From the NCBI GenBank assembly GCA_026416665.1, contig JAOAET010000028.1:3706-67705 (forward strand): DNA of 64,000 nucleotides. The letters are read 5' to 3'. Origin of the DNA: Candidatus Omnitrophota bacterium. GTDB lineage: Bacteria > Omnitrophota > Gorgyraeia > Gygaellales > Profunditerraquicolaceae. Made by a program: the position numbers and the translations under genes. The notes beneath the pieces were generated by a model. The model was not told the DNA's origin. It did not search any database and saw only the letters and a program-made list of their open reading frames with translations. Below, piece after piece: positions 20,546 through 64,000 of this stretch; positions within the stretch are counted from its first letter, which is position 1; the number at the start of each line of letters is the position of its first letter.

Positions 20546-20547
20546 AA

Positions 20548-21123: not shown

Positions 21124-21125
21124 AG

Positions 21126-22139: not shown

Positions 22140-22260
22140 AGACTATCTTTCTTTATTTAAAAACATATTTTAAAAGCAGTTTTTAATCTTTCTCTATTTA
22201 TATTTATTATAAGTCTTCAGATAAAATAATCAATAAATTGAATTTTAATCTCTCTTTATT

Positions 22261-45740: not shown

Positions 45741-45802
45741 TTTTTAAATATTTTTTATCTAAAATTTTTTTACTTTAACTTCGTTTCTAAATTTTTTTAT
45801 TT

Positions 45803-46174: not shown

Positions 46175-46450
46175 TATTATAACATCGATATTTTTTTTAT
46201 CAATTTTCTAGTTCTTACGACTTTTTTAAATTTTATTTAAAAATTAAAAATACAAAAATAAGCTGTTTTCTTCAATGGTCAAATCTCAATAAAACTTTGT
46301 AGCCTTTTGTTTATTCTAGTTTTTAAAATAACCTTAGAAAAACAAAGATTTTAGTTCTTATGAAAAGGTAAGAGAATTTAACTAAGTCGGTTAGAATATA
46401 TTTTAGGGAATAGTTACTTTAAGAATTTTATTGTTACTCTTGTATTTATT

Positions 46451-47185: not shown

Positions 47186-47595
47186 AATTCATCACCCCTT
47201 GTTTTATTTAGGGTTGCAATTTTACTTAGCAAACTCAACTCCAAGTAACTTAAATTAAAAGGTTTAGTAATATAATCGTATGCCCCTTCTTTTAAAGCCT
47301 CTTCCGCAATTTCTCTCTCTGCATAGGCAGTAATCATAATTACCGAAGTCTCGGGATATTTTGCCTTTATCTTGCGCAAAATCTTTATTCCGTTTACTCC
47401 TGGCATTTTAATGTCCAAAAACACTACATCCCGTTTTTCCTGCTCTAAGAAAAGAAGTGCCTCCTCGCCATTTTGAGCACAAGATACATTCGTAAAACCT
47501 TTTTGTCGCAAAAACCGTTCTAAAAATTCTCTAACTGCCTTCTCGTCATCCACGATAAGAATTTTCTCTTTTTTAGCTTCTGTGTTTATATCCAT
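47182..47595 (-). CDS. Single-domain (CheY-like) response regulator
   Basis: REC domain (ILIVDDE...DIKMPGVNG...KP). Confidence 0.85.
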   Translation of the reverse strand: MDINTEAKKEKILIVDDEKAVREFLERFLRQKGFTNVSCAQNGEEALLFLEQEKRDVVFLDIKMPGVNGIKILRKIKAKYPETSVIMITAYAEREIAEEALKEGAYDYITKPFNLSYLELSLLSKIATLNKTRGDEL

Positions 47596-47613
47596 AGCCT
47601 AATCTCCTTCTTT

Positions 47614-49698
47614 CTAACCACTGGTAGTCAAAACATTATTACCTTGCTCTATAACCGGTAGTCTTATTCTAAAACAAGTGCCTTCTCCTACGTTGCTTGA
47701 AACACTAATGTCTCCTCCGAGATCTTTTATAATACTGTAAACCAAAGACAGTCCTAAACCCGTTCCTTCTCCTATTTCTTTAGTAGTAAAAAATGGCTCA
47801 AATATTCTTTCTATATTCTCTGCAGGTATCCCAATTCCTGTGTCAGATATTTCCCAGATAATTTCTTTTTTTTGCCTATCATAACTAGTTTTTATTTTGA
47901 TAGTTCCATTACCCGTATTTTTTTTCTTAATTGCCCAACGCGCATTTGAGAGTATATCAAACAGTACCTGCTGGATGAGCTGTTCATCTCCAAGGAGCGC
48001 AGGCACATCTAAGGCAAGTTCTTTTTCAATAATTATATTTTCCAAGCGAAGGTCATGGGCGATAATTGCCACAACTTTTTCAACCTGCTCATTAATGTTA
48101 ACAGGTATCTTTCTTCCTTTAGATGCATGGGAAAAATCAAGCAGTGCCCGAGTAATTTTGACACAACGTTGGGCAGATTCTTCAATAATTGCAAGTAATT
48201 CTTTAAATTCATTGATATTAAAATCCTTTTTTTCTTGGGCAAGCATCTTGATAAGTTGAACATTGTTAAGAACACCGGTTAAAGGATTATTAATTTCATG
48301 AGCTACGCCTCCTGCTAAAGTACCTAATGAAGCCATTTTTGCTGCCTGAATTAACTGATTCTGGACTCGTTTCAACTCCTCATATGCCTTCTTAAGTGCC
48401 TCTTCAGTATTCTTAATAGCAGTAATGTCTCGCACCGTCTCAATAGCACCGACAATAGTGCCATCTAAGTCATATAATGGCGAAGCAATCGCCCAAACAT
48501 ACGCGCCATGGTTGTTATTTAGTTTGGGAACAAATACCTCTACAGTAAGCTTATTTTCTATGGCAGTTAGTCGCGGATAAAAATTTTCTGCCTCTATAGT
48601 CGGGTCAAGTAGCAAATCTACAAGAATCGGTCTTCTTTCACCATAAAACGGTAGCGCATATTCGTAATCACCTTTTCCTATAATATCTTTTGCAAGAATA
48701 CCTGTAAACTGTTCCATAGCTTTATTCCAAAAAATAACTTTTCTGTTAGAATCAATAACAAAAGTAGGGTCAGGCAAGAAATCAATTATATTAGCAATAT
48801 CCTGCTTTGACTTCATTAATTCTTTCTCAATACGTCTTCGCTCTTCTATTTCAAGCTGTAAAAGAAAGTTATACCTCTCTAATTCCTCTTTACGCTGTTT
48901 TTCCTTTTGGAGTAAATTCTTAAGTTCTTCAGTCATAGTATTGAAATACTCAGTAGCCAGCCCAATTTCATCATAATGAACAATCTTTAATCTTCCTGAA
49001 AAATCCCCACTTTTTACTCTCCGCATTCCATCAATAAGCCTGTCTATGGGGTATAAAATAATGCGTTTGAAAAATATCAAGATAGAAAAAGAAAGGATAA
49101 ATACTCCTAACGTAGACAAAATAATGTTTATATTTCTACTTTGTTTTACTTGCTTTAAAACTGACTCCCAATCTAATCCTATTCTTACTACTCCCAGAAC
49201 CTTGTCTTCTCTTCCATGACAGGGATAGCAGGATTTTTCATTAAAAATTGGGATGTGCTCAATAATTGTCCATCTCCCTGTTCTTTTTCTCTTCTCTATC
49301 TTCAAATAGGGTTTTCCTGTTAAGGAATCTTTTAGAGTATCAGAAATAGGTATTTGCCCAATTAAACTTAAGTCGGTGCTCCGACGAATAAATCCATTTT
49401 TATCAGTTAAATGAATCATGGCAACCGCTGGCAGTTTACTGTATTCGTTAAACTGCTTTTGAATAATATCTTGATCACCATTTAACATAGGATTGCGCAT
49501 AGCAGTTAAGATAACCTGTCCCAGTTGTGCGGCATAATTAAAGGCTAATTTTTCTAATAATGAACGTTGATAATAAATATTTATAGCGCTGATTAGTGCC
49601 AAAATAAATAAAACCGCGGAACAAAAAACAAATATAGCTTTTAACCATAATGAATTTCTTAAGATAATTTTTCCTATTTTTTTATCCCATAACTTCAT
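47614..49698 (-). CDS. Membrane sensor histidine kinase: periplasmic CXXCH sensor, HAMP, PAS, HisKA, HATPase
   Basis: Two TM helices flank a ~145-aa periplasmic domain ending in SCYPCHG. The cytoplasmic part has a HAMP, then a PAS, then a HisKA (HEINNPLTGV) and an HATPase (GTGLGLS). Confidence 0.85.
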   Translation of the reverse strand: MKLWDKKIGKIILRNSLWLKAIFVFCSAVLFILALISAINIYYQRSLLEKLAFNYAAQLGQVILTAMRNPMLNGDQDIIQKQFNEYSKLPAVAMIHLTDKNGFIRRSTDLSLIGQIPISDTLKDSLTGKPYLKIEKRKRTGRWTIIEHIPIFNEKSCYPCHGREDKVLGVVRIGLDWESVLKQVKQSRNINIILSTLGVFILSFSILIFFKRIILYPIDRLIDGMRRVKSGDFSGRLKIVHYDEIGLATEYFNTMTEELKNLLQKEKQRKEELERYNFLLQLEIEERRRIEKELMKSKQDIANIIDFLPDPTFVIDSNRKVIFWNKAMEQFTGILAKDIIGKGDYEYALPFYGERRPILVDLLLDPTIEAENFYPRLTAIENKLTVEVFVPKLNNNHGAYVWAIASPLYDLDGTIVGAIETVRDITAIKNTEEALKKAYEELKRVQNQLIQAAKMASLGTLAGGVAHEINNPLTGVLNNVQLIKMLAQEKKDFNINEFKELLAIIEESAQRCVKITRALLDFSHASKGRKIPVNINEQVEKVVAIIAHDLRLENIIIEKELALDVPALLGDEQLIQQVLFDILSNARWAIKKKNTGNGTIKIKTSYDRQKKEIIWEISDTGIGIPAENIERIFEPFFTTKEIGEGTGLGLSLVYSIIKDLGGDISVSSNVGEGTCFRIRLPVIEQGNNVLTTSG

Positions 49699-50093
49699 TG
49701 CTTTGAATTCCTCACAGCTAAAATGCGGTTTATAATTTCTGTCAAATTAAAAGGCTTATGCAATAGCTCAAAGTTGTGTCTGTTAATTTCTTCAATTAAT
49801 CTATCTTCACCATAGGCAGTAATAATATAAATTTTGGCATTGGGTTTTTTTTGGTGTATCTTTAAAGCTGTATCACAACCATTTAAACCCTGCATACGCA
49901 AATCTATAAAATATAAATCACAGCAAATTTTATCAGTTAGCTCTAAAGCCTTTTGCCCATTCTCTGCTTCATAAAGTTTTACATCAGTTAACTCGGCAAT
50001 ACGCCGGAATAATTGCCGAATTACCAAAGCATCATCAACAACCATAACTTTAAAAGGTGTTGAACTGTTATGTTGCTGTCCGTAGCTTTCCAT
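49695..50093 (-). CDS. Single-domain response regulator
   Basis: REC domain (VMVVDDALVIRQL...DLRMQGLNG). Confidence 0.8.
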   Translation of the reverse strand: MESYGQQHNSSTPFKVMVVDDALVIRQLFRRIAELTDVKLYEAENGQKALELTDKICCDLYFIDLRMQGLNGCDTALKIHQKKPNAKIYIITAYGEDRLIEEINRHNFELLHKPFNLTEIINRILAVRNSKQ

Positions 50094-50106
50094 ATTTTTG
50101 TGCGAT

Positions 50107-50301
50107 TTACTCTTTTTTTACTGAATTTATAATCTGCTCAAGGTCAGTTTTTCTAAAACGACGATGACCTCCCAAGGTTCTAAATGGTCTTAACAATCCT
50201 TTTTTTTCCCAGTTACGTAAAGTAAGCGGTAAAACTCCTAATAACTTGGCAGCCTCAGAAATCGTCAGTATTTCTTTAACAGAATCTTCCTTCTTTCTCA
50301 T
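50107..50301 (-). CDS. Stand-alone excisionase/MerR-type HTH DNA-binding protein
   Basis: 64 aa: ILTISEAAKLLGVLPLTLRNWEKKGLL...GGHRRF, an HTH_17-like domain. Confidence 0.5.
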   Translation of the reverse strand: MRKKEDSVKEILTISEAAKLLGVLPLTLRNWEKKGLLRPFRTLGGHRRFRKTDLEQIINSVKKE

Positions 50302-50317
50302 CTTCTAACCCTAATTA

Positions 50318-50689
50318 TTAACCAGTTAATTCCCGAATCATTCGCACTAACTCTTGCAATTTTACTGGCTTAGAAAGATATAACCAGCCACCGATAATAT
50401 TCTTTTTTTGATTAACCTCTTCTTCTTCTACAATGGCAGTCAGAAATACAACTGGTATATTGCGCGTCTCTACATCTGATTTTAGCTCTTGTGCAATGTC
50501 TGGACCAGATTTTCCAGGCATCATGACATCAAGAAAAATAATATCTGGTTTAGTTGACTTTACCTTTGCTACTGCTTCTAGGGCATTGGAAACAGTAACT
50601 ACTGAAAATTCTTTTGTGTCTTCTAAGTTTTGTTTTAAAAAGAAACAAAAGTCCGTTTCATCATCAATAATCATTACTGTTTTTTTCAT
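50318..50689 (-). CDS. Single-domain response regulator
   Basis: REC domain (VMIIDDETDF...DVMMPGKSG). Confidence 0.85.
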   Translation of the reverse strand: MKKTVMIIDDETDFCFFLKQNLEDTKEFSVVTVSNALEAVAKVKSTKPDIIFLDVMMPGKSGPDIAQELKSDVETRNIPVVFLTAIVEEEEVNQKKNIIGGWLYLSKPVKLQELVRMIRELTG

Positions 50690-52385
50690 TTTCCTTCCTT
50701 TCTTTTAACGGTAAAACCACACTTACACGCGTTCCTTTTCCAAGTTCACTTTCTATTAAAATTTTTCCATTGTGGTTTTCTATAATCATCTTGGCCATAG
50801 AAAGACCCAGACCTGTTCCACGCCTGTCGCGTTTAGTGGTAAAAAATGGTTCAAAGAGTTTAGACAAATTTTCAGGTGATATACCTTCTCCGGTATCAGT
50901 GACTTCCATAACACAGGCAGGTTTATCACCCAAAGCAGAATGTCTCGGATCAAAAAATGTGCGGATAAGCAAACTTCCACCATTGGGCATAGCATCCGTG
51001 GCATTAGAGAAGAGATTAAACAATACCTGCTGTATTTGATTACGGTCAACATATACGGTAGCATTATCATCAGCAAACTCGGTCTCAATACGAATATTCC
51101 TATTGGGAACGCGGTATTGAAATAATGCTAAGGCCTCAGTTACCAAATCATGACAAGTCACATATTCCAACACTGAGTTAGAAGGTCTAGCAAAGCGAAG
51201 TAGGTTAAGGATAATGGCGTTTGCCCGAAGAGTTGCTTCTTTCATTTTTTGTAAAGCTATAACAATGTTTTCTTCAGCAGCACTTAAACGAGCCTCTAGA
51301 TACTCCACACCACCTAAAACTATGGCTAAGGGGTTTTTAACCTCATGAGCAATACCTGCAGAAAATCTTCCTAATGCGGCTAATTTCTCGGACTGAATCA
51401 ACTGTGCCTGCGCTTGATTGAGTTTATCAATAGTCACATTCAAATCATAAATTTTTCTCTGTAACTGTTCATAAAGAGACGCATTTTCTAAAGCAATTGC
51501 TGCCTCATCAGCTAAAATACCAAGCAGTGTCTGTTCACGAGCAGTAAATCTTTCACCATCTGCTTTGTCTGATACATTAAGCACACCAAAGAGTTTATCT
51601 TGTGAAGCAATTGCAATGCTAACAAAAGTTGGTTCAGAATCCTTTTTGCTTTCATATCCATTTTCTGAATGAGAACGAAGATATAAAAAATTTTTTATAT
51701 TGCCACAGATTGATCTTCTTTCTAAAGCAACTTTTCCTGAGATACCTTCACCTAAAGGGATACGGGTGTTTTTAATAACTTCTTCTGGTAGACCTCTTGC
51801 TGCTTTTATAGAAAGGGTCTGGCTCTGTTCGTCTAATAAAAGTAGAGAACCACAGGTAGCGCCAGTTATTTCTAAAGCTGCTTGAAGAACTTTATTTAAA
51901 AGCTCACCTTTATCAATACTATTGGCAATAGAACGGCTTACTTCAAACATAGAAGCCAATTCACTTATTGCTACTTTATTTATATTTTTTCTCTGGCGTT
52001 CAAGACATCTCTCAACAATTGATAACAACTCAAACAAATTAAAAGGCTTGGTGATATAATCATAAGCACCTATTTTAAGCGCCTGAACTGCTGTTTCTAC
52101 GGTAGGATAACCCGTTAAGACAATCACCTCAACAAAGGGATTATGGCGTTTTACCTCCTTAAGTAAATCTAATCCACCTACCTTAGGCATCTTAAGGTCA
52201 GTAATCAATAAATTAATAAAATTATCTTGGGAAAGTAAAGATAAGGCGGCCTCCCCATTTTCCGCAGTAAAACAAGCAAAATCTTTTTGCTCAAGGAACA
52301 TTCGCAATGAATCACGAATAGCCGGCTCATCATCAACTACTAAAATTCGTGGCTTTTCATTACTCCGCACTTCCGTTTCATTCAT
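50664..52385 (-). CDS. Hybrid REC-GAF-histidine kinase
   Basis: N-terminal REC (ILVVDDEPAIRD...DLKMPKVGG), a central GAF, HisKA (HEVKNPLAIV), HATPase (GTGLGLSMAK). No TM segment. Confidence 0.85.
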   Translation of the reverse strand: MNETEVRSNEKPRILVVDDEPAIRDSLRMFLEQKDFACFTAENGEAALSLLSQDNFINLLITDLKMPKVGGLDLLKEVKRHNPFVEVIVLTGYPTVETAVQALKIGAYDYITKPFNLFELLSIVERCLERQRKNINKVAISELASMFEVSRSIANSIDKGELLNKVLQAALEITGATCGSLLLLDEQSQTLSIKAARGLPEEVIKNTRIPLGEGISGKVALERRSICGNIKNFLYLRSHSENGYESKKDSEPTFVSIAIASQDKLFGVLNVSDKADGERFTAREQTLLGILADEAAIALENASLYEQLQRKIYDLNVTIDKLNQAQAQLIQSEKLAALGRFSAGIAHEVKNPLAIVLGGVEYLEARLSAAEENIVIALQKMKEATLRANAIILNLLRFARPSNSVLEYVTCHDLVTEALALFQYRVPNRNIRIETEFADDNATVYVDRNQIQQVLFNLFSNATDAMPNGGSLLIRTFFDPRHSALGDKPACVMEVTDTGEGISPENLSKLFEPFFTTKRDRRGTGLGLSMAKMIIENHNGKILIESELGKGTRVSVVLPLKERKENEKNSNDY

Positions 52386-52415
52386 GAGAAAACCTCTTCT
52401 TTAGTTATCTTTTGT

Positions 52416-52787
52416 TTATTGTCTCAAAATACCCAGAACAGCACTCTTTAATTCATTTATATCTAAAGGCTTAGTAAAAATCTTTAGTATATTATATGGC
52501 TGTAACCGATAATCAACTTCCTTACTTAACCAACCTGTTATCACTATAACTGGGGGCGGCATTTTTAATTGATTTAACTTCTGTAATAATTGTTCTCCCG
52601 ACATAACAGGCATAACTAAGTCAAGCAAAATTAAATCTACTTTCCTATGTTGTATAAATTTCCAGGCATCTAGTCCATTTTGATAAACAAAAATGTTAAT
52701 TTTTTCTTTCGCTAAAATACGTTTAGTAAATTCCAAAATAATTTCTTCGTCATCAACTATGAGTAAATTTTTATATATTTTATCCAT
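52416..52787 (-). CDS. Single-domain response regulator
   Basis: REC domain (LLIVDDEEIILE...DLVMPVMSG). Confidence 0.8.
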   Translation of the reverse strand: MDKIYKNLLIVDDEEIILEFTKRILAKEKINIFVYQNGLDAWKFIQHRKVDLILLDLVMPVMSGEQLLQKLNQLKMPPPVIVITGWLSKEVDYRLQPYNILKIFTKPLDINELKSAVLGILRQ

Positions 52788-52850
52788 TTTAATTAAGTTT
52801 TAGCTCAATAATATAATAGCATATACTTTGTATAAATTCAAGGTAAATTT

Positions 52851-52877
52851 TATTATATTTTATTATATTTTATTATA
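52851..52877. repeat. AT-rich 10-bp tandem direct repeat (TATTATATTT x2.7) in a promoter region
   Basis: tattatattt tattatattt tattata, read directly, 65-90 nt upstream of the REC gene start at 52787. Confidence 0.5.
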
Positions 52878-52893
52878 ACAATTTTATCAAACT

Positions 52894-54606
52894 TTAGTTA
52901 ATGGAAAAAGTTAAGGTAACGGTAGTGCCTATTTGGGGAGTGCTTTGGAAATCAATACTGGCATTAAACTGGGAAAGTATTCTCTTTACCACAGAAATTC
53001 CTAAACCTAAACCCCTACCAGGTTGTTTAGTTGTAAAAAACGGTGTACCTATCTGTTTTAGATATTCCGGTAATATTCCCATTCCTGTGTCTGTAATACT
53101 TACTACTAAAGATTTCTTTGGTTTATCATAAATAGCTTTAACTGTAATTTTCCTTTCTTTTTCAGGTGGATTAGATTCTAAGGCATCCTTGGCATTAGCT
53201 AAGAGATTAAGAAATACCTGTTGTAATTGATTCTCATCTCCAAACAACTTAGGTAGTACCGATTCAAAATATGTCTGTGTCTTTATTGAAAGATTATTAA
53301 ACTCCACACTCATCAAATCTATTGACTTAAAGATTACTTTCTCCAAATCAATTGTTTTTCGTTCCTGGGTAGTTTTACGAGAAAATTGGCAAATACTTCC
53401 AATAATCTCCTTCATTCGGTCGGCTTGTTCTATAATCTTATCTAAATCCTTTCGTAAAGGATTATCGGGCTGTAAATCATAATATGCTGCCTGGGCAAAA
53501 CCTTTTATTCCTGTAAGAGGCTGATTTAATTCATGAGAAATACTTGCGGCAATCTGTCCCATAAAAGCAAGTTTTGAAGCATGTAGAAGCTCTTCCTGAG
53601 TCTTTTTTAATTCTGTTAAATCACGAATTGATTCTATTGCTCCAATTAAATTTCCCTTACTATCGTATAAAGGGCTAGCAACACCTGATAAATACGCCCC
53701 TTTATTATTATAAACACAAGGCACAAAAGTCTCTGCGTATAATATCCCATTATTTTCTTTTATATTTATGTATTTTTCTCTTACTTGCGGAGTATTTTTT
53801 AAAACAAGGTCAATCAAAATAGGTCTACGTTCACCGTAAAAAGGCAAGGCATATTCGTAGTTGCCTTTACCAATTATCTGCGCTGCTTTTATACCGGTCA
53901 TCTTCTCAATTGCCTTATTCCACGCAGTAACTCTGCCATTTTTATCAATTACAAAAGTAGCATCAGGCAAAAAATTGAGGATATTAAATAATTGGTTACG
54001 AGCCTCTTCAATTTCTGCTAATACCTTTTCTTTTTCAGTTATGTCCAGAAAAACACCAATTATTTTTTTTACTTTTCCTCTCTCAGTTACGGCATAACCG
54101 ATAGCCCTAAGGAATAACTGCTCTTTATTAGTATTATCCATCAACTCTATCTCTATATCAAAAGGTAAACCCTGCTTCACAGAGAAAAAGAACGCTTTTC
54201 TTAAGACATCCATAGACTCTAATGTGTAACTAAACCTATTAAGTTTAAAATGTTGAACAATGTTTTTCTGAAGAGAAACTTTTTGAGAAAAAAACATCTT
54301 TGGACAAGGTACAATTGCCTGTTTCTGTAGATTAAACTCCCAACCTCCTAGGTGTTCTAAACGTATGCTCTGTTCTAAGAATCTATCTGCTAGAATAAGG
54401 CATTCTTGGTCCTTTAACTGTTCTTTGTTTCTTTTATGTCCTGTATGAGATATCTTAAAACTTTCCGCTTTTTTTAGGGAAGACAGTTTCAATAAATTTG
54501 CTTGAATGTTAGATGCCCGTGAAACCTTAGATACCTGTTTTCTAAATTGCTTAAGTAATCTTTTTTCCCTTAAGGTATTTCTCTTTTTCTTATTGGTTTT
54601 AGCCAT
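52894..54606 (-). CDS. Cytoplasmic PAS-PAS histidine kinase
   Basis: Basic N-terminus, two PAS-like modules, HisKA ([10 protein letters not shown]), HATPase (GRGLGLGIS). The second PAS is a close paralog of the PAS in the 47614..49698 kinase. Confidence 0.85.
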   Translation of the reverse strand: [570 protein letters not shown]

Positions 54607-54730
54607 GCTTATCCTTTCTTAGATTTTCCCATTTATTTTTTTATGCTATTCCTGTTATTTTCTTCATAAAAACTCAACGGACTTTCAGGAGAATTACCTT
54701 ATAAAATAACCTGCATATTATTTAAAAATA

Positions 54731-54768
54731 AAAAAGCTATTTTACTGTTTTGGTAAAATAGCTTTTAA
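54731..54768 (-). terminator. Rho-independent terminator after the HTH-REC gene
   Basis: 11-bp perfect stem AGCTATTTTAC / GTAAAATAGCT flanked by A- and T-runs. Confidence 0.65.
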
Positions 54769-54814
54769 AGAAAGCATCTTTTTCCTCCTTACCCTCCAAA
54801 AAGGAGTAAAAAAA

Positions 54815-55378
54815 CTATTTTTGTCTTGCAGCCTCTAGAACTTTTTTCATCTCCTCCAAATCAAAAGGTTTGGCTATAGAAGTAAAAGCACCTAATCGTG
54901 CTGCCTCAATACTAGTCTCTAAATCTGCAAATGCACTTAAGATAATAACCGGTATAGATTTATCAAATGCCTTTATTCTTTTTAAGGTATCTATACCACT
55001 TAAACCGGGCATCCGCAGATCTAAGAGCACCACATCTGGCCTAGTTTTTTCTATTAATGCAAGACCTTCTTCCCCCGAAGAAGCAGTTAAAACCTGATAA
55101 TCAGCAAGTGCCTTTACGAAGTATTCACGGATAGCTTTTTCATCATCAATTATCAAAATTGTAGGTTTTGGTTTTGCCGTTTTATAATGCTGGGATAAAA
55201 TTGTTTTATCTTTTACCTGCGACATAAGCCATTGGTCAATAAGCTCTTTCTTAAAACGCCATTCACTGGAAATCTTGAAGGCAGGAATTTTACCTTCCCG
55301 TGCAAGCTTATACACAGTCATTTTGTTCATTTTAAGGTACTTAGCGGTCTGCTTTATATCCATTAAACTATCTTCCAT
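54815..55378 (-). CDS. Response regulator with N-terminal excisionase/MerR-type HTH and C-terminal receiver
   Basis: N-terminus IKQTAKYLKMNKMTVYKLAREGKIPAFKI (HTH_17-like); C-terminus ILIIDDEKAIRE...DLRMPGLSG (REC). Confidence 0.75.
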   Translation of the reverse strand: MEDSLMDIKQTAKYLKMNKMTVYKLAREGKIPAFKISSEWRFKKELIDQWLMSQVKDKTILSQHYKTAKPKPTILIIDDEKAIREYFVKALADYQVLTASSGEEGLALIEKTRPDVVLLDLRMPGLSGIDTLKRIKAFDKSIPVIILSAFADLETSIEAARLGAFTSIAKPFDLEEMKKVLEAARQK

Positions 55379-55428
55379 TTCTTTTTGTCCTCTCTTAAGT
55401 TAGAATATCCTTATTTATTATAAATAAA

Positions 55429-55812
55429 TTAATATTGTATCATATTATTTTTGATAAAATTTATCAGCTGAGCCACAGTTACAGGTTTAGCAATAAAAGG
55501 CCTGCCGGCAATAGTGTCTCCTTGAGGAGTTACTTCATAGTCTCTTATCAAGGCTGTCAGAAAACCCACTGGAATATTCTTTAACTCTGCATCTTCACTT
55601 AACTGATGGGCAATCTCACCACCGTCCATATCAGGCATTACAATATCCAAAAGTATAAAATCGGGTTTAAACTCTCTTGCCGCAGGAAGGGCGCGAATTC
55701 CTTTTGTTTCAGTTCGCACTTCAAACTCACCTGTTTGTTCAAGATTTAGCTTTACTAAACGACAGAAACTTTCTTCATCATCAACTATTAGAATCTTTTT
55801 TCTGCCCTTCAT
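55429..55812 (-). CDS. Single-domain response regulator
   Basis: REC domain (ILIVDDEESF...DIVMPDMDG). Confidence 0.8.
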   Translation of the reverse strand: MKGRKKILIVDDEESFCRLVKLNLEQTGEFEVRTETKGIRALPAAREFKPDFILLDIVMPDMDGGEIAHQLSEDAELKNIPVGFLTALIRDYEVTPQGDTIAGRPFIAKPVTVAQLINFIKNNMIQY

Positions 55813-57130
55813 CGTAAACCTCCTTCTGGTGAACTTTTAATGCAATCTCAACAATGACTCCTTTTCCTTGTTCAATTGGTTTATTGCGGATACTAATTAA
55901 TCCTTTATGGGAGGCAATAATGTTATTTACTACTGCCAATCCTAAGCCTGTTCCGCCTTGATTACGTTTGGTAGTAAAAAAAGGGTCAAAAACTTTAGAA
56001 AGATTTTGCTCGGGAATGCCACAACCACTGTCTTCTACAGTAATAACTAATACCTCATCTTGAGGCCGAAAATAGTCTTGTCTTCTTAAACCAATTAGAT
56101 GACTTGTGAGTTTTTCTGCCTTTATTAATCTCACCTTTATTTCTAATCTTCCACCTTCTGGCATTGCATGAATAGAATTTTCAAATAAGTTTATAAACAC
56201 TTGGGTCATTTTATTTACATCAATCAATGTTAATGGCAGATCAATAGGAATATCCTTCTCTACATTAATGTGAAATTTGTCCAATTGATGTTTTAATAGT
56301 AAGAGTGCCTTATCAATAGGTTGGTTTATCTGAACTGGTTGATTATCTAATTTTGAGATACTGGAAAAATCTAAAACACCCTTTATGATTGCGTCTGCGC
56401 GCATTGTTGCTTCTTTAAGGTCATTAAGAACAACAGTAATATCCTTCTCATAGATAGGAATTTTTTTTTCTAAATATTCAGTTGCCTGTAAAATAATTGC
56501 AAGAGGGTTTTTTACTTCATGAGCTATTCCAGAAGCAAGGCGTCCAATAGTTTCCATCTTTTCTGCTTGAATAAGTTGGGATTGTGTAGTTTTAAGCTCT
56601 TCGATAACTTTGCGTAATTGTTGTTCGGTGGCGTTCCTTTTGTTAATTTCAATTTCTAACTGACTTATTGTCTGTTGAAGTTGTTCTGTCCTCTGATTAA
56701 CCTGTTGTTCTAATTTCTCAGCGTAAAGTCGTAATTGCTCAAGCAATCGTTTACGTTCAATAGCATAACGTATAGAACGTTTAAGGGTCTGCGCATCAAC
56801 TGCTCCCTTAACAAGATAATCTTGAGCACCTGCATCTAAGGCCTCTAAAGCTAAATTCTCATCTGCAACACGTGTTAAAACTACAATGGGAATAAGCGGT
56901 TGTGCTTTCTGAACTTTCAGAAAAGTATCTAGACCTATGCCGTCGGGAAGAGTCAAATCCAAAAGAATTAATTGGCAAGTCTGTTGCTTTAAAAAAGAAA
57001 AAGCCTCAGAGAGATTTGGAACCTGAAATAATATAAAGTCTTTTAGTGCTGGCTCATTAAAAATATCCTTAACTATCCGTGCATCAAAGGCACTATCTTC
57101 CACCAATAAGATTTTTGTTTTAGTATCCAT
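55781..57130 (-). CDS. Hybrid REC-histidine kinase
   Basis: N-terminal REC (ILLVEDSAFD...DLTLPDGIG), coiled coil, HisKA (HEVKNPLAII), HATPase (GTGLGLAVV). Confidence 0.85.
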   Translation of the reverse strand: MDTKTKILLVEDSAFDARIVKDIFNEPALKDFILFQVPNLSEAFSFLKQQTCQLILLDLTLPDGIGLDTFLKVQKAQPLIPIVVLTRVADENLALEALDAGAQDYLVKGAVDAQTLKRSIRYAIERKRLLEQLRLYAEKLEQQVNQRTEQLQQTISQLEIEINKRNATEQQLRKVIEELKTTQSQLIQAEKMETIGRLASGIAHEVKNPLAIILQATEYLEKKIPIYEKDITVVLNDLKEATMRADAIIKGVLDFSSISKLDNQPVQINQPIDKALLLLKHQLDKFHINVEKDIPIDLPLTLIDVNKMTQVFINLFENSIHAMPEGGRLEIKVRLIKAEKLTSHLIGLRRQDYFRPQDEVLVITVEDSGCGIPEQNLSKVFDPFFTTKRNQGGTGLGLAVVNNIIASHKGLISIRNKPIEQGKGVIVEIALKVHQKEVYDEGQKKDSNS

Positions 57131-57431: not shown

Positions 57432-57755
57432 TCAAATAGAATTATTCTGTAATATAGACTCTAGCTTAATACCTATTCTAAACTGTGCAGGGGCTATCTT
57501 TTTTTGCCAAACAATTGTCCCTTGCCTATAGATTGGCTGTTGGTTTTCCTGTAACATAACCCAAATATCTACGATTGCTTTTCTTACCATCACTCTTTTG
57601 GTAATAACTCCGAGGCCGTTTGCACTTATATCACAACATACACCTCTACGTAGAGCAATTCTTTTAGTATCAATAAGACGAAGCGGTAAATTACAATTAA
57701 GACGCCTAAATGTTCTTCTTTCTTTTCTATCTACAATATCCATATTATTAAACAC
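57432..57755 (-). CDS. PilZ-domain c-di-GMP-binding protein
   Basis: RRTFRR (RxxxR) and DISANGLG (DxSxxG). The start codon overlaps the stop region of the giant ORF by 8 nt. Confidence 0.6.
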   Translation of the reverse strand: MFNNMDIVDRKERRTFRRLNCNLPLRLIDTKRIALRRGVCCDISANGLGVITKRVMVRKAIVDIWVMLQENQQPIYRQGTIVWQKKIAPAQFRIGIKLESILQNNSI

Positions 57756-60700
57756 TCCCAGTAAATTCAGACAATTGTAAAAGTTGTTTCTCTATTCGCC
57801 AGCTTATTTTCTGTGCCTCTACTTTAATCTCATCAAGAATCCGAAAATCCACATAGTTTACCAATTCCATAATAAAGAATATTTTGTTTTGGTAACGTAA
57901 AAACCATTCAAGAGGTAATCCCTTTGCGGTAGTGTCATAACTATTCATATTTTTGTTGAATTCGTTGCTTAATGGATTTATTTCTTCTTGTAAATTTGTA
58001 AGTAATATCGTATTCTTTCCTGCTCCCTTTTTCCTTCCCAGCTTAATACATACCAAAGCCCCCACTTTTTCTGTATCTTTTTTAAAATAAATTAATTTAT
58101 AACCCACAAAGTGGTATGGGGGTATGTAACATTCTAAAATATCTGAAATATCTGACTTGTAATTTTGTTTCTGAGGTACTGGTCTGCTGTGTCTTTCCTT
58201 ACAAGGAAGAACTAGATTGCCTCCATCTTTGTCCCTAAAGGTTTTTGGGGATTCTGGCATTTTCCTAGTATCATTGTCCGATTTAATCTTGCATATTCTG
58301 ATTAAAGTAGTCGGACCTATGTCTTTAGCTGTATAACCAGCTAATTCGGAAGTTCTCAATAATTCATCAAACTGGAATCGATTGTTTGAAAAGTAATCAA
58401 AAAAGAAGAGTCCTTTGTCTTTTAAAACTCGCACTATTTCTTTTAATACAGGTAGAGAAATATCTTCAAGGGCAGTAGAGGTATAAACAATATCTATAGA
58501 ACTATTCTTTATAAATGGCAACCAAGCTGCATCTGCTGTCCTTAACAATAAATTTTTAGGCAAAGTAGATACACCATTTATACCTTTCTTCTTTAACTTA
58601 TAAACCTCTTCTATCTTCCAAGAAATCCCCTCATCAAAATCAACCAAAAAGCGATAAGCAGAAATCTCCTTGGCTAAACGAATAGTATCGGTCTGCCTAT
58701 CTATAGCAATAACTTCTTTAAAATTACCTTTAGTAGCAGCAATTAATGCAAAACCACCCCAACCGCAACCTAACTCCAGTAATCGTTTTTTTTCTGGAGA
58801 TTCTACATATCTTAAAACAATATCCAATTGTTCAGCCGGAGTCAAATCGCCCCAACAGCGGTATCTAACTAACTGTTTAAATTCTTGGGCAGTAAGTTTT
58901 CCTAACCAACCGCCGTCATGTTTATTTACTTCTTTATCTAATCCTTCTTTTTTCTCTCCAAATCTACTACTATCTGTGATATTAAATTTTTGTGAATTAA
59001 GAGACATTCCTTTTTTACGTAAATAAAAAGTATGGCGAGATTTTTTGTATCTTACTGGTTCAAAATTCATTTTTATTTGGTCATCTATTTCCTGAGGAAA
59101 TTTATAGATGAGTAAATCTGCTTTTATGCGTTCAGCTAAATCAATTAAATGCTGAGTAAGTTCTGGATATGGTCTGATGGCATAAATAAGGTTGGCATTA
59201 TCATATATATCATTGCAAGGTTTTGTTACATCATCTCTTACAACTTGCACATCAATTGCATATTTTTCTAAGGCAGTGGACGTCTCTTTAAGTAATAAAG
59301 GATTAACATCTGTAGCAATTACTTCTAAGTTAGCAGGTCCGCGTTTTTTAATGTATGCACAAACCCACCATACCGCCCCTACTCCTATCTCTACTATTTT
59401 TCTTGCTTTTGAATAATTTTGAAGAATATAGTAAGCTATTGCCCTTCCGATCTCATCGCGTCTAAGGTGTTCTTGAATCGAGAAACTATTGTTTTCTCCT
59501 CCATCTTTTTGCCACCAAGAAACAAGTTCTCCATATGTTGAGCTATAAAATTGTCCTTCATAATTAAATTTAATATCATCATCCTCAGAAATTTTGCATT
59601 GACCTTTCTTTCTATGTGTGCCTTTTAATTCCATCAACTTTTGGTATTCCTCTAAGGGACTACTTATATAAGGTCCATAAGGAAAGTCCTGTGGTAGAGA
59701 AAACCACTCTCTTTTTCTAGTTTGTTTACGTTGTTCCCAAGTAAGCTCATAATATATATTATAAAAAACAGCTATTCCCTTTGGTCGCAGAATGTCGTTT
59801 GTGGCCTTCCAAGTATTCTTGGAACCTTCTATCCCAAGTATTTCAGTTCCTGTGCTTAAACTACCGTATATAAAATCTATACTTTTCTCTTTGAAAACAT
59901 ATTTTAAGTCAAGACAAGACATATAGTAAACAGAGCATTTTTCTTTTAGGTTGTCTTTCCCTTTAATCTGCCTTGCTAAGTCTTCTACGTTTTCCTTTAA
60001 TACTTCTACAAGATATATAGCTTCTGGTTTTATTCGTTCTGCCAAATACTCAGCTTCAGTAAGCCATTTTCCAGGACCAAGAATCATTACTACTTCATAT
60101 GTAGAAATATCATGTTGTTTTAAACATCGTAAACTCTCTTTTATTCTTTGTTCTGCATCTAAATACATCTTATGGTCACGGCCTTGATAAGTGGCATCTT
60201 CAGCAATTACTTCTTCAGCTAAACTAATATGTCCTGGTTGCGCTGGGATGTCTTTTTTTGTGCATTGTTGGTTTTTAAAAGATAGAACAACAGGCTTATA
60301 CCTATCAATATCACCTCCATCACAGCCTTCAATAAGACTATTCCAGAACCTTGCATAGCGCTGGTTCGGTAATAAAGTTTCTTTCACCCATTGCATTAAC
60401 CAGTTTTTACTCCAAATTTTTCCATAACGGCTTCTAAAATCTCTAGCAGTATTGGGATCAATATAAAGCTGGTAACTATTTTGTGTCTTTCTTTTACTCT
60501 TCCAAACATCGGGATGGAAAATATCACTCCATGAAATTAGACACAATTCTTGTGGCTTAAGAACCTTGTTCCAGACAAGCGCAGCTATCTCAAGAAGTAA
60601 GAATACATCAAGGTAATTTTTATTGGTTTTAGGATTTTTCTGGAATTTAGAAAAAGGATAAGGTGAAAGGTAAAAACTTACTTTAGCGCCTTCTGCACAC

Positions 60701-63700
60701 TTCTCTAAAAACTTGCCATCTATTATAAATCTTACATTTCCTTTTTCCAGCCAGGAAAATTTTTCTTGGAACTTTTTAGGAATAACTCCTGATAATCTAG
60801 AAACCCAGAATTTTATCTGTCCAAAATTAGTAAATTTGTCAAAAGTCTTAATAATAATAATTCCATCATAATTGTAAGGTTTAGTATATGTAGGATTAAT
60901 TGTCTGCACAGCCACTATCTCAGCAATTTTTTTATTAAATAAGTTTAATACTTCTGCTTTTACTTTATAAACACCTTGCTGGTTATCTTCTGGTGAATAA
61001 ATTCGTATAGTTGCCCTAATAAGAAATGGAAAAGAAGTTAACTTAACCTCTCCACCATCTTTGTAGGTGTTTAAAGAATAATTTTTGTGTAAGTAACTTT
61101 GAATTACTATCTTTAGCTTTTTAATCTCTGGCAAAAACCCTAATGGGGCTTTTCTATAACCTACTCCAAAACAGTTCCAGAATTTCTCCGCTTTTTTATC
61201 TAAAGGTAAAATTTGTATTTCTTTAAAATTATGTTTTTCAAAGTAATTACAAATAGATAAAACAAGCCGAGAACCAATTTTTTGCCGTCTTAAAAATGGG
61301 TGCAAGTGAATAGAACTAAGTTCAATACAAAATTCGTCAATTTTGCTTATTTCAAGCCACACTAAATACTCAAGCCCAATGCTGATAACTATCCTAAATC
61401 TTTCTTCTAAATAAGAATTCTCTACTTTTATTTTAATATTATCTGTTTCGTTTGCTTCTTCAAACCCTTTGCTTCTTTGTATTTCTCTTGCTCTTTTTAT
61501 TATCTCTTTAATTAAATCTCTCCCAATTAGTTCTAGCGCATCCTTATCAGAAATCCAAAACTCCTCACCCCCGTCTCTTGCAAGACAATTACGGTTATAT
61601 ATCTTTCCAGATTCATTATTCTTATTTATTTTAAGGGATACTTTTTTGTCATCTGCTTCTATTAATTTTATGTCTTTTAATTTAATAAAGTTTTTCTTAA
61701 AAGATATAATTATTTCATCCCAGTTTTTGCGGTCACGAGTAAACTCAACTACGCCTTTTTTATTGGGGGTGTAGATGGTTGCAGGAAGCTTCTTTATATC
61801 CAAAAGCATTGCGGCTAAAACACGGTGATGTCCATCTACAACATATCTATAATATTGAATTATACCTTTCTTAGCTTTTTGATAGTCAATATCTTCCCAG
61901 ATAATAAGTGGTTGCTTGATATTATTTGCCAAAAAGTAAATCTGTAATATTAACTTTTCAAATTGACAAATATGGCAAGTAGGTAATAACTCACTTATTG
62001 ATACATAACTTTTTTCTTGAGTAACACTGTTTAGCCCTGTGTTTTTATCTTGGTGAATAGCAAGGATATCATTTATGATATCGGAAGGATGGATAAACTT
62101 TTGCCTGCTGAATATCTCATTAATGTATTCTCTACTAAAAGTTAAATAAGAAACGTCTTTTTTATCTTTCCCGCCATCATAATTTCTCTCTTCTAAGTTT
62201 TTCTGATAATTTTTCCAAAAATTAAGATAAGCGGAGAGTTCTATTCCGTCATAGAACTCATTTATCGTCCAAATTGGTTGTCCTTTTTTAAAATGTCTTT
62301 GCTTAATACTATTTAGAACAACAATACTTACCATTCGTAGCTTACTGCTAGTATGTCTATTAAGATAATACAAACATGCAGGCAAGGCTTTTAAATCCAT
62401 AAGCGCCAATGCTTCAAAATAATGTCTGCAAACAGACAAGTTAAAATCATTAGCCATTGCTTTTAATAAGGCCGGTGTACTTTCCCTGCCTTGTAAGGCC
62501 AAAGCTGCTACAACAAGAAAGGAAAGTAACTCATTATCACTTATTCGTAATGTCTCAATTAAGAACTCTGTTGCTTTTGACCCAAGATGCCCTAATGCCT
62601 CCAAAGCAACAACTGTCAATTCCTGTTGCGCCATAGCATTAATAATGGGCTCAACTGCTTGGGTAGAACGACTGTATCCTAAAATAGCCACTGCTAAAGC
62701 CTTTGCCTCTGTATTCTCACTTTTTTCTAAAAACTTAATAAGTTCTTTAACGGCATGCTCTCCATATTTCAGAAGTGCATCCATAGCAACTAATTTTATC
62801 TGTTCATCTTCGTCTTCTAATAAACTTACAAAAATCTTAATTGACCTTTCATCTTTTAAAGAAAGTAAAACTTTGGCAGCAACCATTCGTTTCTTTTTGT
62901 CGTCCTCCTTACTTAATTGTTTTCTAAAGTAAGATAAATTTAGAATCTTTTTATTCTTCTTTCTCTGGAATTTTATTTTGTCTTTTTGGTCACCGCCGTC
63001 GAGGTTATTTTTCTCCTGTTCAAAACGATATATTTCTGCAAAACAAAGCCCGCCCTTGACAATAAATAATTGTTTTACTTTATCATAAAATATCCTTATA
63101 GGTAGTGCCTCTTCTTCAATATACGCTAACTTTAGTGCTTCAAGATGGCGTTTGGAAATACTAATTCTTCCTTCTGCTATATTCTCATAAATGTCTTCTT
63201 TATCCAGAAAATCTGTTTCATCTACCAGCTCAACTACCTGGGGTTCACCATCGCATGAAGTAGTTAAACGCAAGATTTTTCCTTTTGCAACAACTTCAAA
63301 TGCTTCATCCTCTAAGAATACCAAACCTGCATAAGGGCTGTTTACAAAAAGTTGATGCCAAAATACTTCATCATTAGTTTTTGTTCGTTTTTGACGAGGA
63401 TAACGTTGGATAAAGCGATGTTCTTGTTTCGTAACTGGTTTCTTAAGTAACGCAAGTGCCTTTTCTGGCTGGTCAATATAATCATAAAAGAAGTCAATAG
63501 CTTTTTTATGGGCTGTAATTTTTTCAGAACGCCAGCATTCATACAGTTTACCTAATATTAATTCCGCTATCACAAAATAGTAAATTCCATTTGTATCTTG
63601 AGCTAAAACCTGATAATATTCTGTACCACTTATTTCTCTAAGTAAAATTACACGAAAGCGTTCTTTACCCTCTAAAAACTCATGGTTGTCTATATTAGTT

Positions 63701-63981
63701 CCACAGCCTCCGTCTTGTTTCTTCTCTCTTTTTTTCTGTAAAAGGCGTATTTTTGTAAGTATAAAATCCTCTAAAATTTCTTCATCTTCTCTATTACGTG
63801 CAACAACTACCCATTCTTTTATAAAAGGATAATGGTTATATGTTCCGTTTAAATCCCCATATTCTTTTATGAAATCTGTGGTTAGAAACAATAATTTTAG
63901 CGTATCTTCCCAAGCAGGTTTTCCAGATATTCGAGAGGTAAAGGAAATGGTAAAGATATGGTCCAAAGTAACAGGGGACAT
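57748..63981 (-). CDS. Giant 2077-aa multidomain protein: HEAT/PBS-lyase repeats, ParB-like (DGHHR), GNAT acetyltransferase, three class-I SAM-methyltransferase domains
   Basis: One uninterrupted 6.2-kb ORF. It carries HEAT_2-like repeats (~aa 370-520), YVVDGHHRVLAA (ParB/Srx fold), HPFLRRQKIGSRL (GNAT motif A), and three MTase cores: VMILGPG...IDFIY...LRPKGIAVF; IVEIGVGAV...VIATD; LLELGCGWGG...IAIDRQ...SIDIVY...LKDKGLFFF. Confidence 0.8.
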   Translation of the reverse strand: MSPVTLDHIFTISFTSRISGKPAWEDTLKLLFLTTDFIKEYGDLNGTYNHYPFIKEWVVVARNREDEEILEDFILTKIRLLQKKREKKQDGGCGTNIDNHEFLEGKERFRVILLREISGTEYYQVLAQDTNGIYYFVIAELILGKLYECWRSEKITAHKKAIDFFYDYIDQPEKALALLKKPVTKQEHRFIQRYPRQKRTKTNDEVFWHQLFVNSPYAGLVFLEDEAFEVVAKGKILRLTTSCDGEPQVVELVDETDFLDKEDIYENIAEGRISISKRHLEALKLAYIEEEALPIRIFYDKVKQLFIVKGGLCFAEIYRFEQEKNNLDGGDQKDKIKFQRKKNKKILNLSYFRKQLSKEDDKKKRMVAAKVLLSLKDERSIKIFVSLLEDEDEQIKLVAMDALLKYGEHAVKELIKFLEKSENTEAKALAVAILGYSRSTQAVEPIINAMAQQELTVVALEALGHLGSKATEFLIETLRISDNELLSFLVVAALALQGRESTPALLKAMANDFNLSVCRHYFEALALMDLKALPACLYYLNRHTSSKLRMVSIVVLNSIKQRHFKKGQPIWTINEFYDGIELSAYLNFWKNYQKNLEERNYDGGKDKKDVSYLTFSREYINEIFSRQKFIHPSDIINDILAIHQDKNTGLNSVTQEKSYVSISELLPTCHICQFEKLILQIYFLANNIKQPLIIWEDIDYQKAKKGIIQYYRYVVDGHHRVLAAMLLDIKKLPATIYTPNKKGVVEFTRDRKNWDEIIISFKKNFIKLKDIKLIEADDKKVSLKINKNNESGKIYNRNCLARDGGEEFWISDKDALELIGRDLIKEIIKRAREIQRSKGFEEANETDNIKIKVENSYLEERFRIVISIGLEYLVWLEISKIDEFCIELSSIHLHPFLRRQKIGSRLVLSICNYFEKHNFKEIQILPLDKKAEKFWNCFGVGYRKAPLGFLPEIKKLKIVIQSYLHKNYSLNTYKDGGEVKLTSFPFLIRATIRIYSPEDNQQGVYKVKAEVLNLFNKKIAEIVAVQTINPTYTKPYNYDGIIIIKTFDKFTNFGQIKFWVSRLSGVIPKKFQEKFSWLEKGNVRFIIDGKFLEKCAEGAKVSFYLSPYPFSKFQKNPKTNKNYLDVFLLLEIAALVWNKVLKPQELCLISWSDIFHPDVWKSKRKTQNSYQLYIDPNTARDFRSRYGKIWSKNWLMQWVKETLLPNQRYARFWNSLIEGCDGGDIDRYKPVVLSFKNQQCTKKDIPAQPGHISLAEEVIAEDATYQGRDHKMYLDAEQRIKESLRCLKQHDISTYEVVMILGPGKWLTEAEYLAERIKPEAIYLVEVLKENVEDLARQIKGKDNLKEKCSVYYMSCLDLKYVFKEKSIDFIYGSLSTGTEILGIEGSKNTWKATNDILRPKGIAVFYNIYYELTWEQRKQTRKREWFSLPQDFPYGPYISSPLEEYQKLMELKGTHRKKGQCKISEDDDIKFNYEGQFYSSTYGELVSWWQKDGGENNSFSIQEHLRRDEIGRAIAYYILQNYSKARKIVEIGVGAVWWVCAYIKKRGPANLEVIATDVNPLLLKETSTALEKYAIDVQVVRDDVTKPCNDIYDNANLIYAIRPYPELTQHLIDLAERIKADLLIYKFPQEIDDQIKMNFEPVRYKKSRHTFYLRKKGMSLNSQKFNITDSSRFGEKKEGLDKEVNKHDGGWLGKLTAQEFKQLVRYRCWGDLTPAEQLDIVLRYVESPEKKRLLELGCGWGGFALIAATKGNFKEVIAIDRQTDTIRLAKEISAYRFLVDFDEGISWKIEEVYKLKKKGINGVSTLPKNLLLRTADAAWLPFIKNSSIDIVYTSTALEDISLPVLKEIVRVLKDKGLFFFDYFSNNRFQFDELLRTSELAGYTAKDIGPTTLIRICKIKSDNDTRKMPESPKTFRDKDGGNLVLPCKERHSRPVPQKQNYKSDISDILECYIPPYHFVGYKLIYFKKDTEKVGALVCIKLGRKKGAGKNTILLTNLQEEINPLSNEFNKNMNSYDTTAKGLPLEWFLRYQNKIFFIMELVNYVDFRILDEIKVEAQKISWRIEKQLLQLSEFTGSV

Positions 63982-64000
63982 AAAAATCTCAAAAAACCAG

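Follow-up and report, generated by a model that had tools for sequence, protein, structure and literature searches.

A recurrent Asp-Gly-Gly tripeptide at the module junctions of a multi-enzyme long open reading frame in Candidatus Omnitrophota: a possible bacterial polyprotein

Here we describe the 3' part of a long multi-enzyme open reading frame (ORF) in a Candidatus Omnitrophota chromosome, in whose product the tripeptide Asp-Gly-Gly (DGG) marks each of the nine junctions between segments. This frame, referred to as the giant ORF, lies at one end of the window, that is, the whole 64,000-nucleotide stretch of contig JAOAET010000028.1 that was analysed. An invariant tripeptide in an otherwise free context is, judged by sequence, the signature of an enzyme recognition site, and we propose, at a probability of roughly 0.45, that the product is a bacterial polyprotein which is cut after the Gly-Gly of each DGG. 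The main rival to this proposal is an uncleaved, tethered multi-enzyme in which DGG would be a hinge or docking motif.

DGG punctuation in Omnitrophota giant proteins

The giant protein contains DGG nine times (aa 90, 328, 602, 803, 975, 1221, 1493, 1689, and 1919), compared with 0.29 occurrences expected from composition. DGG is the most over-represented tripeptide of the protein (Poisson p = 2.9e-11, uncorrected for the ~8,000 possible tripeptides), and just 54 of 20,000 shuffles of the protein contained three or more copies. The sites, which the initial annotation of this DNA overlooked in its list of features, are given below with their codons.

DGG site 1, 63706..63714, minus strand, GAC GGA GGC
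DGG site 2, 62992..63000, minus strand, GAC GGC GGT
DGG site 3, 62170..62178, minus strand, GAT GGC GGG
DGG site 4, 61567..61575, minus strand, GAC GGG GGT
DGG site 5, 61051..61059, minus strand, GAT GGT GGA
DGG site 6, 60313..60321, minus strand, GAT GGA GGT; aligned with DGG 921 of the Omnitrophota fragment P0016 and DGG 90 of the fragment P0080
DGG site 7, 59497..59505, minus strand, GAT GGA GGA
DGG site 8, 58909..58917, minus strand, GAC GGC GGT
DGG site 9, 58219..58227, minus strand, GAT GGA GGC

Across the nine sites, Asp is encoded by both of its codons and Gly by all four, and no flanking residues or nucleotides are held in common beyond what D-G-G dictates. Because the synonymous codons vary and the flanks are unshared, DGG is conserved as a peptide and not as nucleotides. 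Two nucleotide-level explanations were accordingly rejected: a DNA repeat, given that the sites display no nucleotide conservation, and an in-frame Shine-Dalgarno sequence (GGAGG) for internal initiation, given that no more than four of the nine sites contain GGAGG, codon usage differs between sites, and seven of the junctions have no start codon within 37 codons.

The nine sites divide the visible giant protein into ten segments of 92, 238, 274, 201, 172, 246, 272, 196, 230, and 156 aa, all of which, except the first, are the size of intact proteins (156-274 aa). Pfam envelopes lie without exception inside segments, none of them extending across a DGG. Stand-alone UPF0146 proteins (~140 aa) align with the corresponding segment from ~13 aa past one DGG up to ~33 aa before the next, and in the structural model of this module the 28 residues ahead of the DGG have a predicted local distance difference test score (pLDDT) below 50. 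The DGG sites sit in hydrophilic stretches. The frame contains no stops, and the 37 codons past the DGG lack an in-frame ATG, GTG, or TTG at 7 of the 9 junctions; the modules can therefore be made only within the long chain.

In the other proteins of the window DGG occurs twice, compared with 3.2 expected in 16,081 aa. Among 22 ORFs of at least 900 aa, drawn from the window and from fetched loci, an extreme tripeptide was found in just three Omnitrophota giants and one protein with WDG repeats. The latter is a 2,814-aa ORF on an unrelated metagenome contig (L086:3-8444, minus strand) that contains WDG nine times (0.47 expected), probably as a beta-propeller-type repeat and not as punctuation.

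A second giant is punctuated by the same tripeptide. P0016, a protein of 2,580 aa labelled Candidatus Omnitrophica, fills a 7.7-kb contig (L011:2-7741) of 53% GC and contains eight DGG (0.64 expected), DGG being its top tripeptide too. BLASTP aligns the P0016 module ending in DGG 921 with segment 6 of the giant protein, ending in DGG 1221, at 28% identity, and the terminal DGG 90 of the short fragment P0080 is likewise aligned with the DGG of segment 6; a homologue search with P0016 returned only P0016 itself. Residues 377-637 of P0016 form a triosephosphate isomerase (TIM) module that is circularly permuted, the first ~50 residues of the barrel having been moved to the C-terminal end. Un-permuting the barrel extends the Pfam match, which in the native order covers profile positions 53-242 with 115 bits, to positions 2-242 with 137.5 bits, and the entire permuted TIM barrel is bounded exactly by two DGG.

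A different motif is found in a further pair of sequences. P0054 (MBU4312050.1, L092:2-16657), a Candidatus Omnitrophica protein of 5,552 aa that fills a 16.7-kb contig, and P0036 (TRZ94487.1), a giant fragment of 1,796 aa, contain no DGG, and carry 18 and 11 SSP motifs, respectively (1.1 and 0.6 expected), mostly as SSSP[V/I]. The motifs are mostly ~100-530 aa apart, a few pairs being closer, which is comparable to the spacing of DGG. Every Pfam domain detected in these two proteins lies inside a motif-delimited piece; the domains are PAS-GGDEF, TPR, receiver, HPr, UPF0146, LOG-like, both alanine dehydrogenase halves, and methyltransferases in P0054, and sugar transferase, subtilase, and methyltransferases in P0036. 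The alanine dehydrogenase, HPr, and receiver modules of P0054, like the UPF0146 segment of the giant protein, span their stand-alone homologues in full. One SSSP-delimited piece of P0036 (aa 279-577) is a Peptidase_S8 (subtilase) module, a candidate processing enzyme for this type of motif. Residues 578-829 of P0036, another SSSP-delimited module, are homologous to segment 7 of the giant protein (phmmer E = 5e-9), so that modules are common to both types of punctuation. DGG is retained at the same module end despite deep divergence, and another lineage swaps in a different strict motif.

At the nucleotide level, 9 of the 18 SSSP sites of L092 carry an identical AGCTCGCCG, in every case in frame and with no copy on the opposite strand, compared with ~0.15 such sites expected from codon usage in this gene of 39.5% GC. 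Recent cassette addition, a recombination site, and an RNA signal are possibilities for this conservation.

As far as checked, a strict junction motif is a so far undescribed property of Omnitrophota long ORFs. A search of two studies of such ORFs (bioRxiv 10.1101/2023.11.21.568195; 10.64898/2026.06.07.730766) for DGG and for wording on linkers, polyproteins, punctuation, and inter-domain regions gave no mention. In the library searched, no literature joining Omnitrophota with polyprotein was found, and none joining Omnitrophota with Gly-Gly was present among the best 10 of 1,246 matches.

Extent and module content of the giant ORF

The position of the giant ORF is as follows.

Giant ORF, 57748..63999, minus strand, at least 2,083 codons, without a stop up to the window edge

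The frame ends in a TAA stop at 57748-57750 with a second TAA directly after it. Its first in-window ATG is at 63981, from which 2,077 aa are counted; between this ATG and the window end at 63999 there are six further codons and no stop, and no Shine-Dalgarno-like sequence was found ahead of the ATG. Because the frame is open upstream, such a sequence is absent, and the first segment comprises just 92 aa, the true N-terminus probably lies outside the window, making 2,077 aa a lower bound. The initial annotation was thus right to describe one uninterrupted frame, and mistaken in taking 2077 aa as its full length. With a source contig of 69,894 bp, at most ~2,000 extra giant-ORF codons can be present on the same contig.

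GenBank protein MCX7927153.1, labelled 'UPF0146 family protein [Candidatus Omnitrophica bacterium]', is encoded on this 69,894-bp contig, comprises 628 aa that are 100% identical to aa 1450-2077 of the giant ORF, and begins at the internal Met1450 of the open frame (window 57748-59634, minus strand). Since the frame is stop-free upstream of it, the 1,450 or more codons there are not ordinary separate genes. Public records of such loci can fall far short of the full frame; here, 628 aa were called of at least 2,083.

Homologue searches with the full-length giant protein returned unrelated HEAT proteins only, and those with its N-terminal 336 aa returned no match. A phmmer search with aa 978-2077, exhaustive against 1.84 billion representative proteins, matched nearly exclusively UPF0146 proteins of small size; the remaining matches were a few long fragments. 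A Kyte-Doolittle scan of the visible giant ORF detected no 19-residue window averaging 1.6, which agrees with the earlier statement that there is no transmembrane segment; a secretion signal was likewise not found in the visible part.

The segments follow one another in the order given below; Pfam matches were judged against curated cut-offs.

Segment 1, 63706..63999, minus strand, aa 1-92 from the ATG, no family match, DGG at the end; probably the C-terminal part of a module truncated at the window boundary
Segment 2, 62992..63705, minus strand, aa 93-330 (238 aa), no family match, no homologue found
Segment 3, 62170..62991, minus strand, aa 331-604, HEAT / PBS-lyase-type repeats
Segment 4, 61567..62169, minus strand, aa 605-805, probable ParB/sulfiredoxin-like module, motif YVVDGHHRVLAA
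Segment 5, 61051..61566, minus strand, aa 806-977, GNAT acetyltransferase
Segment 6, 60313..61050, minus strand, aa 978-1223, no family match, module in common with Omnitrophota fragments P0016 and P0080
Segment 7, 59497..60312, minus strand, aa 1224-1495, degenerate class I methyltransferase-like
Segment 8, 58909..59496, minus strand, aa 1496-1691, UPF0146, S-adenosylmethionine (SAM) methyltransferase fold; ~30-residue low-confidence tail ending in DGG
Segment 9, 58219..58908, minus strand, aa 1692-1921, class I SAM methyltransferase
Segment 10, 57751..58218, minus strand, aa 1922-2077, C-terminal module, no family match

The HEAT and GNAT modules named in the initial annotation were both borne out above Pfam cut-offs. 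Segment 3 matches HEAT_2 with 63 bits (cut-off 27.7; E = 3.3e-17), as well as alphaRep and HEAT chains in the PDB, and segment 5 matches Acetyltransf_1 (PF00583) with 29.7 bits (cut-off 20.7; E = 8.6e-7) over segment residues 70-133, the acetyl-CoA motif region included. The ParB-like motif claimed for segment 4 is favoured by three PHROG ParB-like families that match over the DGHHR region (best phrog_1033, E = 6.6e-6; phrog_26387, E = 1.6e-4), and disfavoured by the lack of a Pfam ParB match at E <= 1 or of any NCBIfam match. An AlphaFold model of segments 4-7, made without an alignment, had a pLDDT of 33 and was not used for fold search.

With respect to the three methyltransferase cores claimed, two are substantiated. 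Segment 9 matches Methyltransf_31 (43 bits) and Methyltransf_11 (42 bits), both above their cut-offs, with E = 4.5e-11 for a class I methyltransferase, and segment 8 matches UPF0146 with 86.5 bits (cut-off 26; E = 1.8e-24). The AlphaFold model of segment 8, calculated with an alignment of stand-alone UPF0146 proteins, has a pLDDT above 90 in the module, and Foldseek matches it best to MTH_1000 in the PDB (2K4M; target TM-score 0.73), followed by SAM methyltransferases. For segment 7, which has a degenerate glycine motif (GPGKW) and no Pfam match, the indication is an hhalign probability of 66% (E = 5.5e-5) to methyltransferase modules, in which motifs IV-V alone are covered. Segments 1, 2, 6, and 10 gave no match in Pfam, other profile, PHROG, or PADLOC searches.

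The initial annotation named no characterised protein of this architecture; the same kind of ORF has already been described in Omnitrophota, namely long ORFs in which many unrelated enzymes are strung together with a HEAT scaffold, methyltransferases, and GNATs (bioRxiv 10.1101/2023.11.21.568195; 10.64898/2026.06.07.730766). Such ORFs contain many unrelated Pfam families along with HEAT, PF08241, and PF00583, most are unique in sequence, and class 1 of the latter study, which applied a threshold of at least 10,000 aa, is designated 'multi-enzyme metabolic clusters' (10.64898/2026.06.07.730766). The giants of West-Roberts et al. 2023 are methyltransferase-, NUDIX-, and peptidase-rich and exceed 30,000 aa (10.1101/2023.11.21.568195). 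By its predicted domains the giant ORF fits this class, its domain combination being new and the class known. It tiles HEAT_2, GNAT, UPF0146, and Methyltransf_11/31 with five or six unassigned modules, none dominating, and it resembles the published long ORFs in phylum, tiling of unrelated Pfam families, HEAT scaffolding, PF08241-type methyltransferases, GNAT, unique sequence with almost no homologues, and suspected protease processing. It differs in length, published examples spanning 10,000-147,000 aa compared with the at least 2,083 codons visible here. The hallmarks of West-Roberts et al. (N-terminal C39/S8, transmembrane helices, and SecA-like domains) are absent from the visible 2,083 aa, the N-terminal part probably lying outside the window.

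Polyprotein processing and its alternatives

Under the proposed mechanism, the whole module string would be translated as one chain, which would then be cut after the Gly-Gly at each DGG, such that single enzymes would be released at a set ratio; this would resemble a viral polyprotein, or an operon realised in protein. Cleavage would most likely be the work of a papain-fold cysteine peptidase with Gly-Gly specificity, encoded either in the part of the ORF beyond the window or elsewhere in the genome, and a PilZ gene co-transcribed at the 3' end would add a receptor for cyclic di-GMP (c-di-GMP) to the set. C39 peptidases and viral papain-like proteases cleave after Gly-Gly, and because C39 and other papain-fold peptidases do so, processing after DGG would be the most economical mechanism. 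As a further possibility, each released module would have ...Gly-Gly as its free C-terminus, the ending that ubiquitin-like modifiers rely on.

Viral polyproteins processed at Gly-Gly include the substrates of coronavirus PLpro (LXGG) and of the adenovirus protease, and pp220/pp62 of African swine fever virus (Gly-Gly-X). These have in common with the giant protein one long product made of protein-sized units and a short, invariant Gly-Gly junction motif with little else conserved; unlike them, the giant ORF lies on a cellular chromosome, has an invariant Asp at P3 and no embedded protease in view, and cleavage is suggested here by sequence. C39 double-glycine leaders, processed by peptidase-containing ATP-binding cassette transporters (PCATs), likewise present Gly-Gly at P2-P1 to a cysteine peptidase of clan CA, and C39 domains have been reported in Omnitrophota giants. 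Canonical leaders have conserved hydrophobic positions ahead of the GG; they are short, N-terminal, and cut once at export, whereas here nine internal sites lie between modules.

Polyvalent proteins of phages and conjugative elements, reportedly described by Iyer, Burroughs and Aravind in 2017, and multifunctional autoprocessing repeats-in-toxin (MARTX) toxins are also large, combine ParB-like, methyltransferase, and unrelated modules, and have processing into effectors proposed or demonstrated. They are however encoded in mobile-element or toxin loci and contain a processing peptidase or cysteine protease domain, whereas the giant ORF lies in a housekeeping region. Searches of PHROGs and PADLOC detected no homology of the giant ORF to either group, and the chromosomal flanks show that it is not part of a phage, plasmid, or conjugative element.

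Several points weigh against cleavage at DGG. Profile searches detected no peptidase family in the visible segments or in the other annotated genes of the window. The 17 junction contexts available (9 here and 8 in P0016) have nothing in common apart from DGG and no leader pattern, and P4 is often basic. DGG is not avoided in the other window proteins, so a DGG-specific protease would need extra context, such as an exposed linker. The shared nucleotides at SSSP sites of L092 hint at a DNA-level contribution to the origin of junctions; P0022, another long Omnitrophota fragment, has no punctuation motif; and the comparative sample is small, with three DGG-type and two SSSP-type sequences. A peptidase hidden in the unassigned segments was considered and rejected, since profile searches gave no match and segment 6 and P0016 have no conserved Cys or His in common.

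Omnitrophota giants are known to contain C39 and S8 domains, C39 near N-termini, and cleavage has been suspected, with the cleavage points stated to be unknown, a gap that blocked domain-by-domain structure prediction (10.1101/2023.11.21.568195). More tentatively than for the giant ORF itself, we suggest that Omnitrophota giant ORFs in general may be true cellular polyproteins, the lineage-specific motifs (DGG; SSSP[V/I]) being cleavage sites matched to the type of embedded peptidase (C39-like or subtilase S8) and dozens of enzymes being released at fixed stoichiometry. Omnitrophota carry the longest known bacterial genes, and DGG would make it directly testable whether the products of these act whole or cut up, given that cleavage after DGG predicts peptides ending in ...DGG in the proteome. 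If true, this would be the first cellular counterpart of viral polyprotein expression, along with a new protease-substrate pair. The junction motif also offers a cheap and concrete way of splitting giant ORFs for annotation and structure prediction.

Somewhat unlikely in our estimation, and yet the strongest competitor of cleavage, is a beads-on-a-string enzyme that remains uncleaved, in which DGG is a conserved hinge, or a cap or docking motif for a partner or for the HEAT module, on a flexible tether. Gly-Gly is naturally flexible, the sites lie in hydrophilic, low-confidence linkers, no peptidase was found in the visible sequence, and such ORFs have been regarded in published work as potential single products anchored in the membrane. 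An invariant tripeptide amid unconserved surroundings is, however, more than a plain linker needs. The same module end is kept across 28% identity and a shift from 34% to 53% GC, a different and equally strict motif (SSSP[V/I]) is used in another lineage, and the modules equal full stand-alone proteins.

It is improbable that DGG and SSSP[V/I] are scars left at junctions by DNA-level addition or shuffling of cassettes, the peptide itself being of little function. The identical AGCTCGCCG at 9 of 18 L092 sites would be expected from such a process, as would homologous modules under different punctuation (segment 7 and the P0036 module). The nine sites of the window, however, use all synonymous codons and have no nucleotides in common beyond those of D-G-G; because the DGG peptide has been maintained though any nucleotide signal has decayed, selection appears to act on the protein.

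We also give little credence to a single, dedicated multidomain enzyme that modifies a nucleic acid or small molecule, or to a defence protein or injected effector, made stoichiometrically with PilZ, as the initial annotation had speculated. ParB-like, GNAT, and methyltransferase modules do occur together in the giant protein, a methyltransferase module matches the PADLOC model mad2, and the PilZ gene abuts the stop codon. The PADLOC matches (the mad2 methyltransferase and a HEAT) are however generic fold similarities, the surroundings are housekeeping chromosome with no defence island or mobile element, neither a secretion signal nor a transmembrane segment is seen in the visible part, relatives do not share the PilZ neighbourhood, and the mixture of unrelated enzymes is typical of Omnitrophota long ORFs. 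What remains of the earlier multi-enzyme reading is the presence of HEAT, GNAT, and two methyltransferase-fold modules; a single multidomain enzyme is disfavoured, DGG suggesting a string of separate proteins.

An assembly chimera, or genes fused through sequencing errors, is scarcely credible, for while the GenBank annotation calls just the last 628 aa from Met1450 and the 689-bp contig of the homologue P0080 is broken up into three short gene calls, 6.25 kb without a stop in DNA of 34% GC is not attainable by chance, the junctions lack both stops and usable start codons, and other Omnitrophota contigs consist of one ORF from end to end, organised alike.

The PilZ gene and the chromosomal setting

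Downstream of the giant ORF lie a PilZ-domain gene and a two-component cluster.

PilZ-domain gene, 57432..57755, minus strand, 107 codons, start at GTG 57755 or ATG 57743
Two-component cluster (receiver-histidine kinase, receiver, helix-turn-helix (HTH)-receiver), 54815..57130, minus strand, downstream of PilZ

The PilZ product matches PF07238 with 42.9 bits (cut-off 22.5; E = 6.3e-11) and retains intact RRTFRR (RxxxR) and DISANG (DxSxxG) motifs, as initially described, and by these motifs it is a predicted c-di-GMP receptor. A start at GTG 57755 gives the 8-nt overlap with the giant ORF that was noted earlier. The alternative ATG 57743, 1 nt past the double stop TAATAA and 11 nt past GGGAG, is at least as plausible a start, and the overlap holds for the GTG start only, while coupling by spacing stands. 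Neither start leaves space for a separate promoter, and the PilZ gene is therefore likely to be co-transcribed with the giant ORF. GGDEF modules occur inside other Omnitrophota giants, which makes a c-di-GMP link of giant ORFs plausible.

The PilZ gene and the kinase cluster are 301 nt apart with a promoter-like site between them. The receiver-histidine kinase has a counterpart, at 59% identity, in an Omnitrophota metagenome-assembled genome (L001), in which the next three genes are in the same order and the contig begins at the kinase. This relative and the fully identical GenBank fragment MCX7927153.1 assign the locus to a Candidatus Omnitrophota chromosome. In the relatives L012-L014, with kinases 49-51% identical, a flavoprotein gene lies upstream, and neither a giant ORF nor PilZ is found there; a partnership of the giant ORF with PilZ, for which synteny was proposed as a check, is thus not conserved. 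In L012 (kinase 51% identical) a PilZ gene at 11685-12044 overlaps the end of the kinase-receiver pair; PilZ may therefore be part of the two-component cluster rather than a companion of the giant ORF, though this PilZ protein and that of the window share just 19% identity.

The window has ~35% GC and its long ORFs are all on one strand. Its housekeeping genes encode ClpB, DnaK, DnaJ, GrpE, HrcA, HflX, MiaA, RNase G, ribosomal protein S1, ProA, ProB, Obg, TyrRS, sugar-nucleotide enzymes, PilM, PilQ, and an LptD-like protein. The flanking 57 kb are chromosomal housekeeping DNA in which the only notable PHROG matches are the ParB-like ones, and the locus is chromosomal, not a mobile element. A dense signalling run at 44514-57130 (minus strand) encodes four histidine kinases, which also contain receiver, PAS, GAF, or HAMP domains, together with three receivers of single-domain or HTH type and one double-receiver protein. 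At 17884-22142 (minus strand), PilQ secretin and PilM genes with ORFs without assignment between them probably form a type IV pilus assembly cluster, type IV pili having been discussed as symbiosis or predation factors in Omnitrophota.

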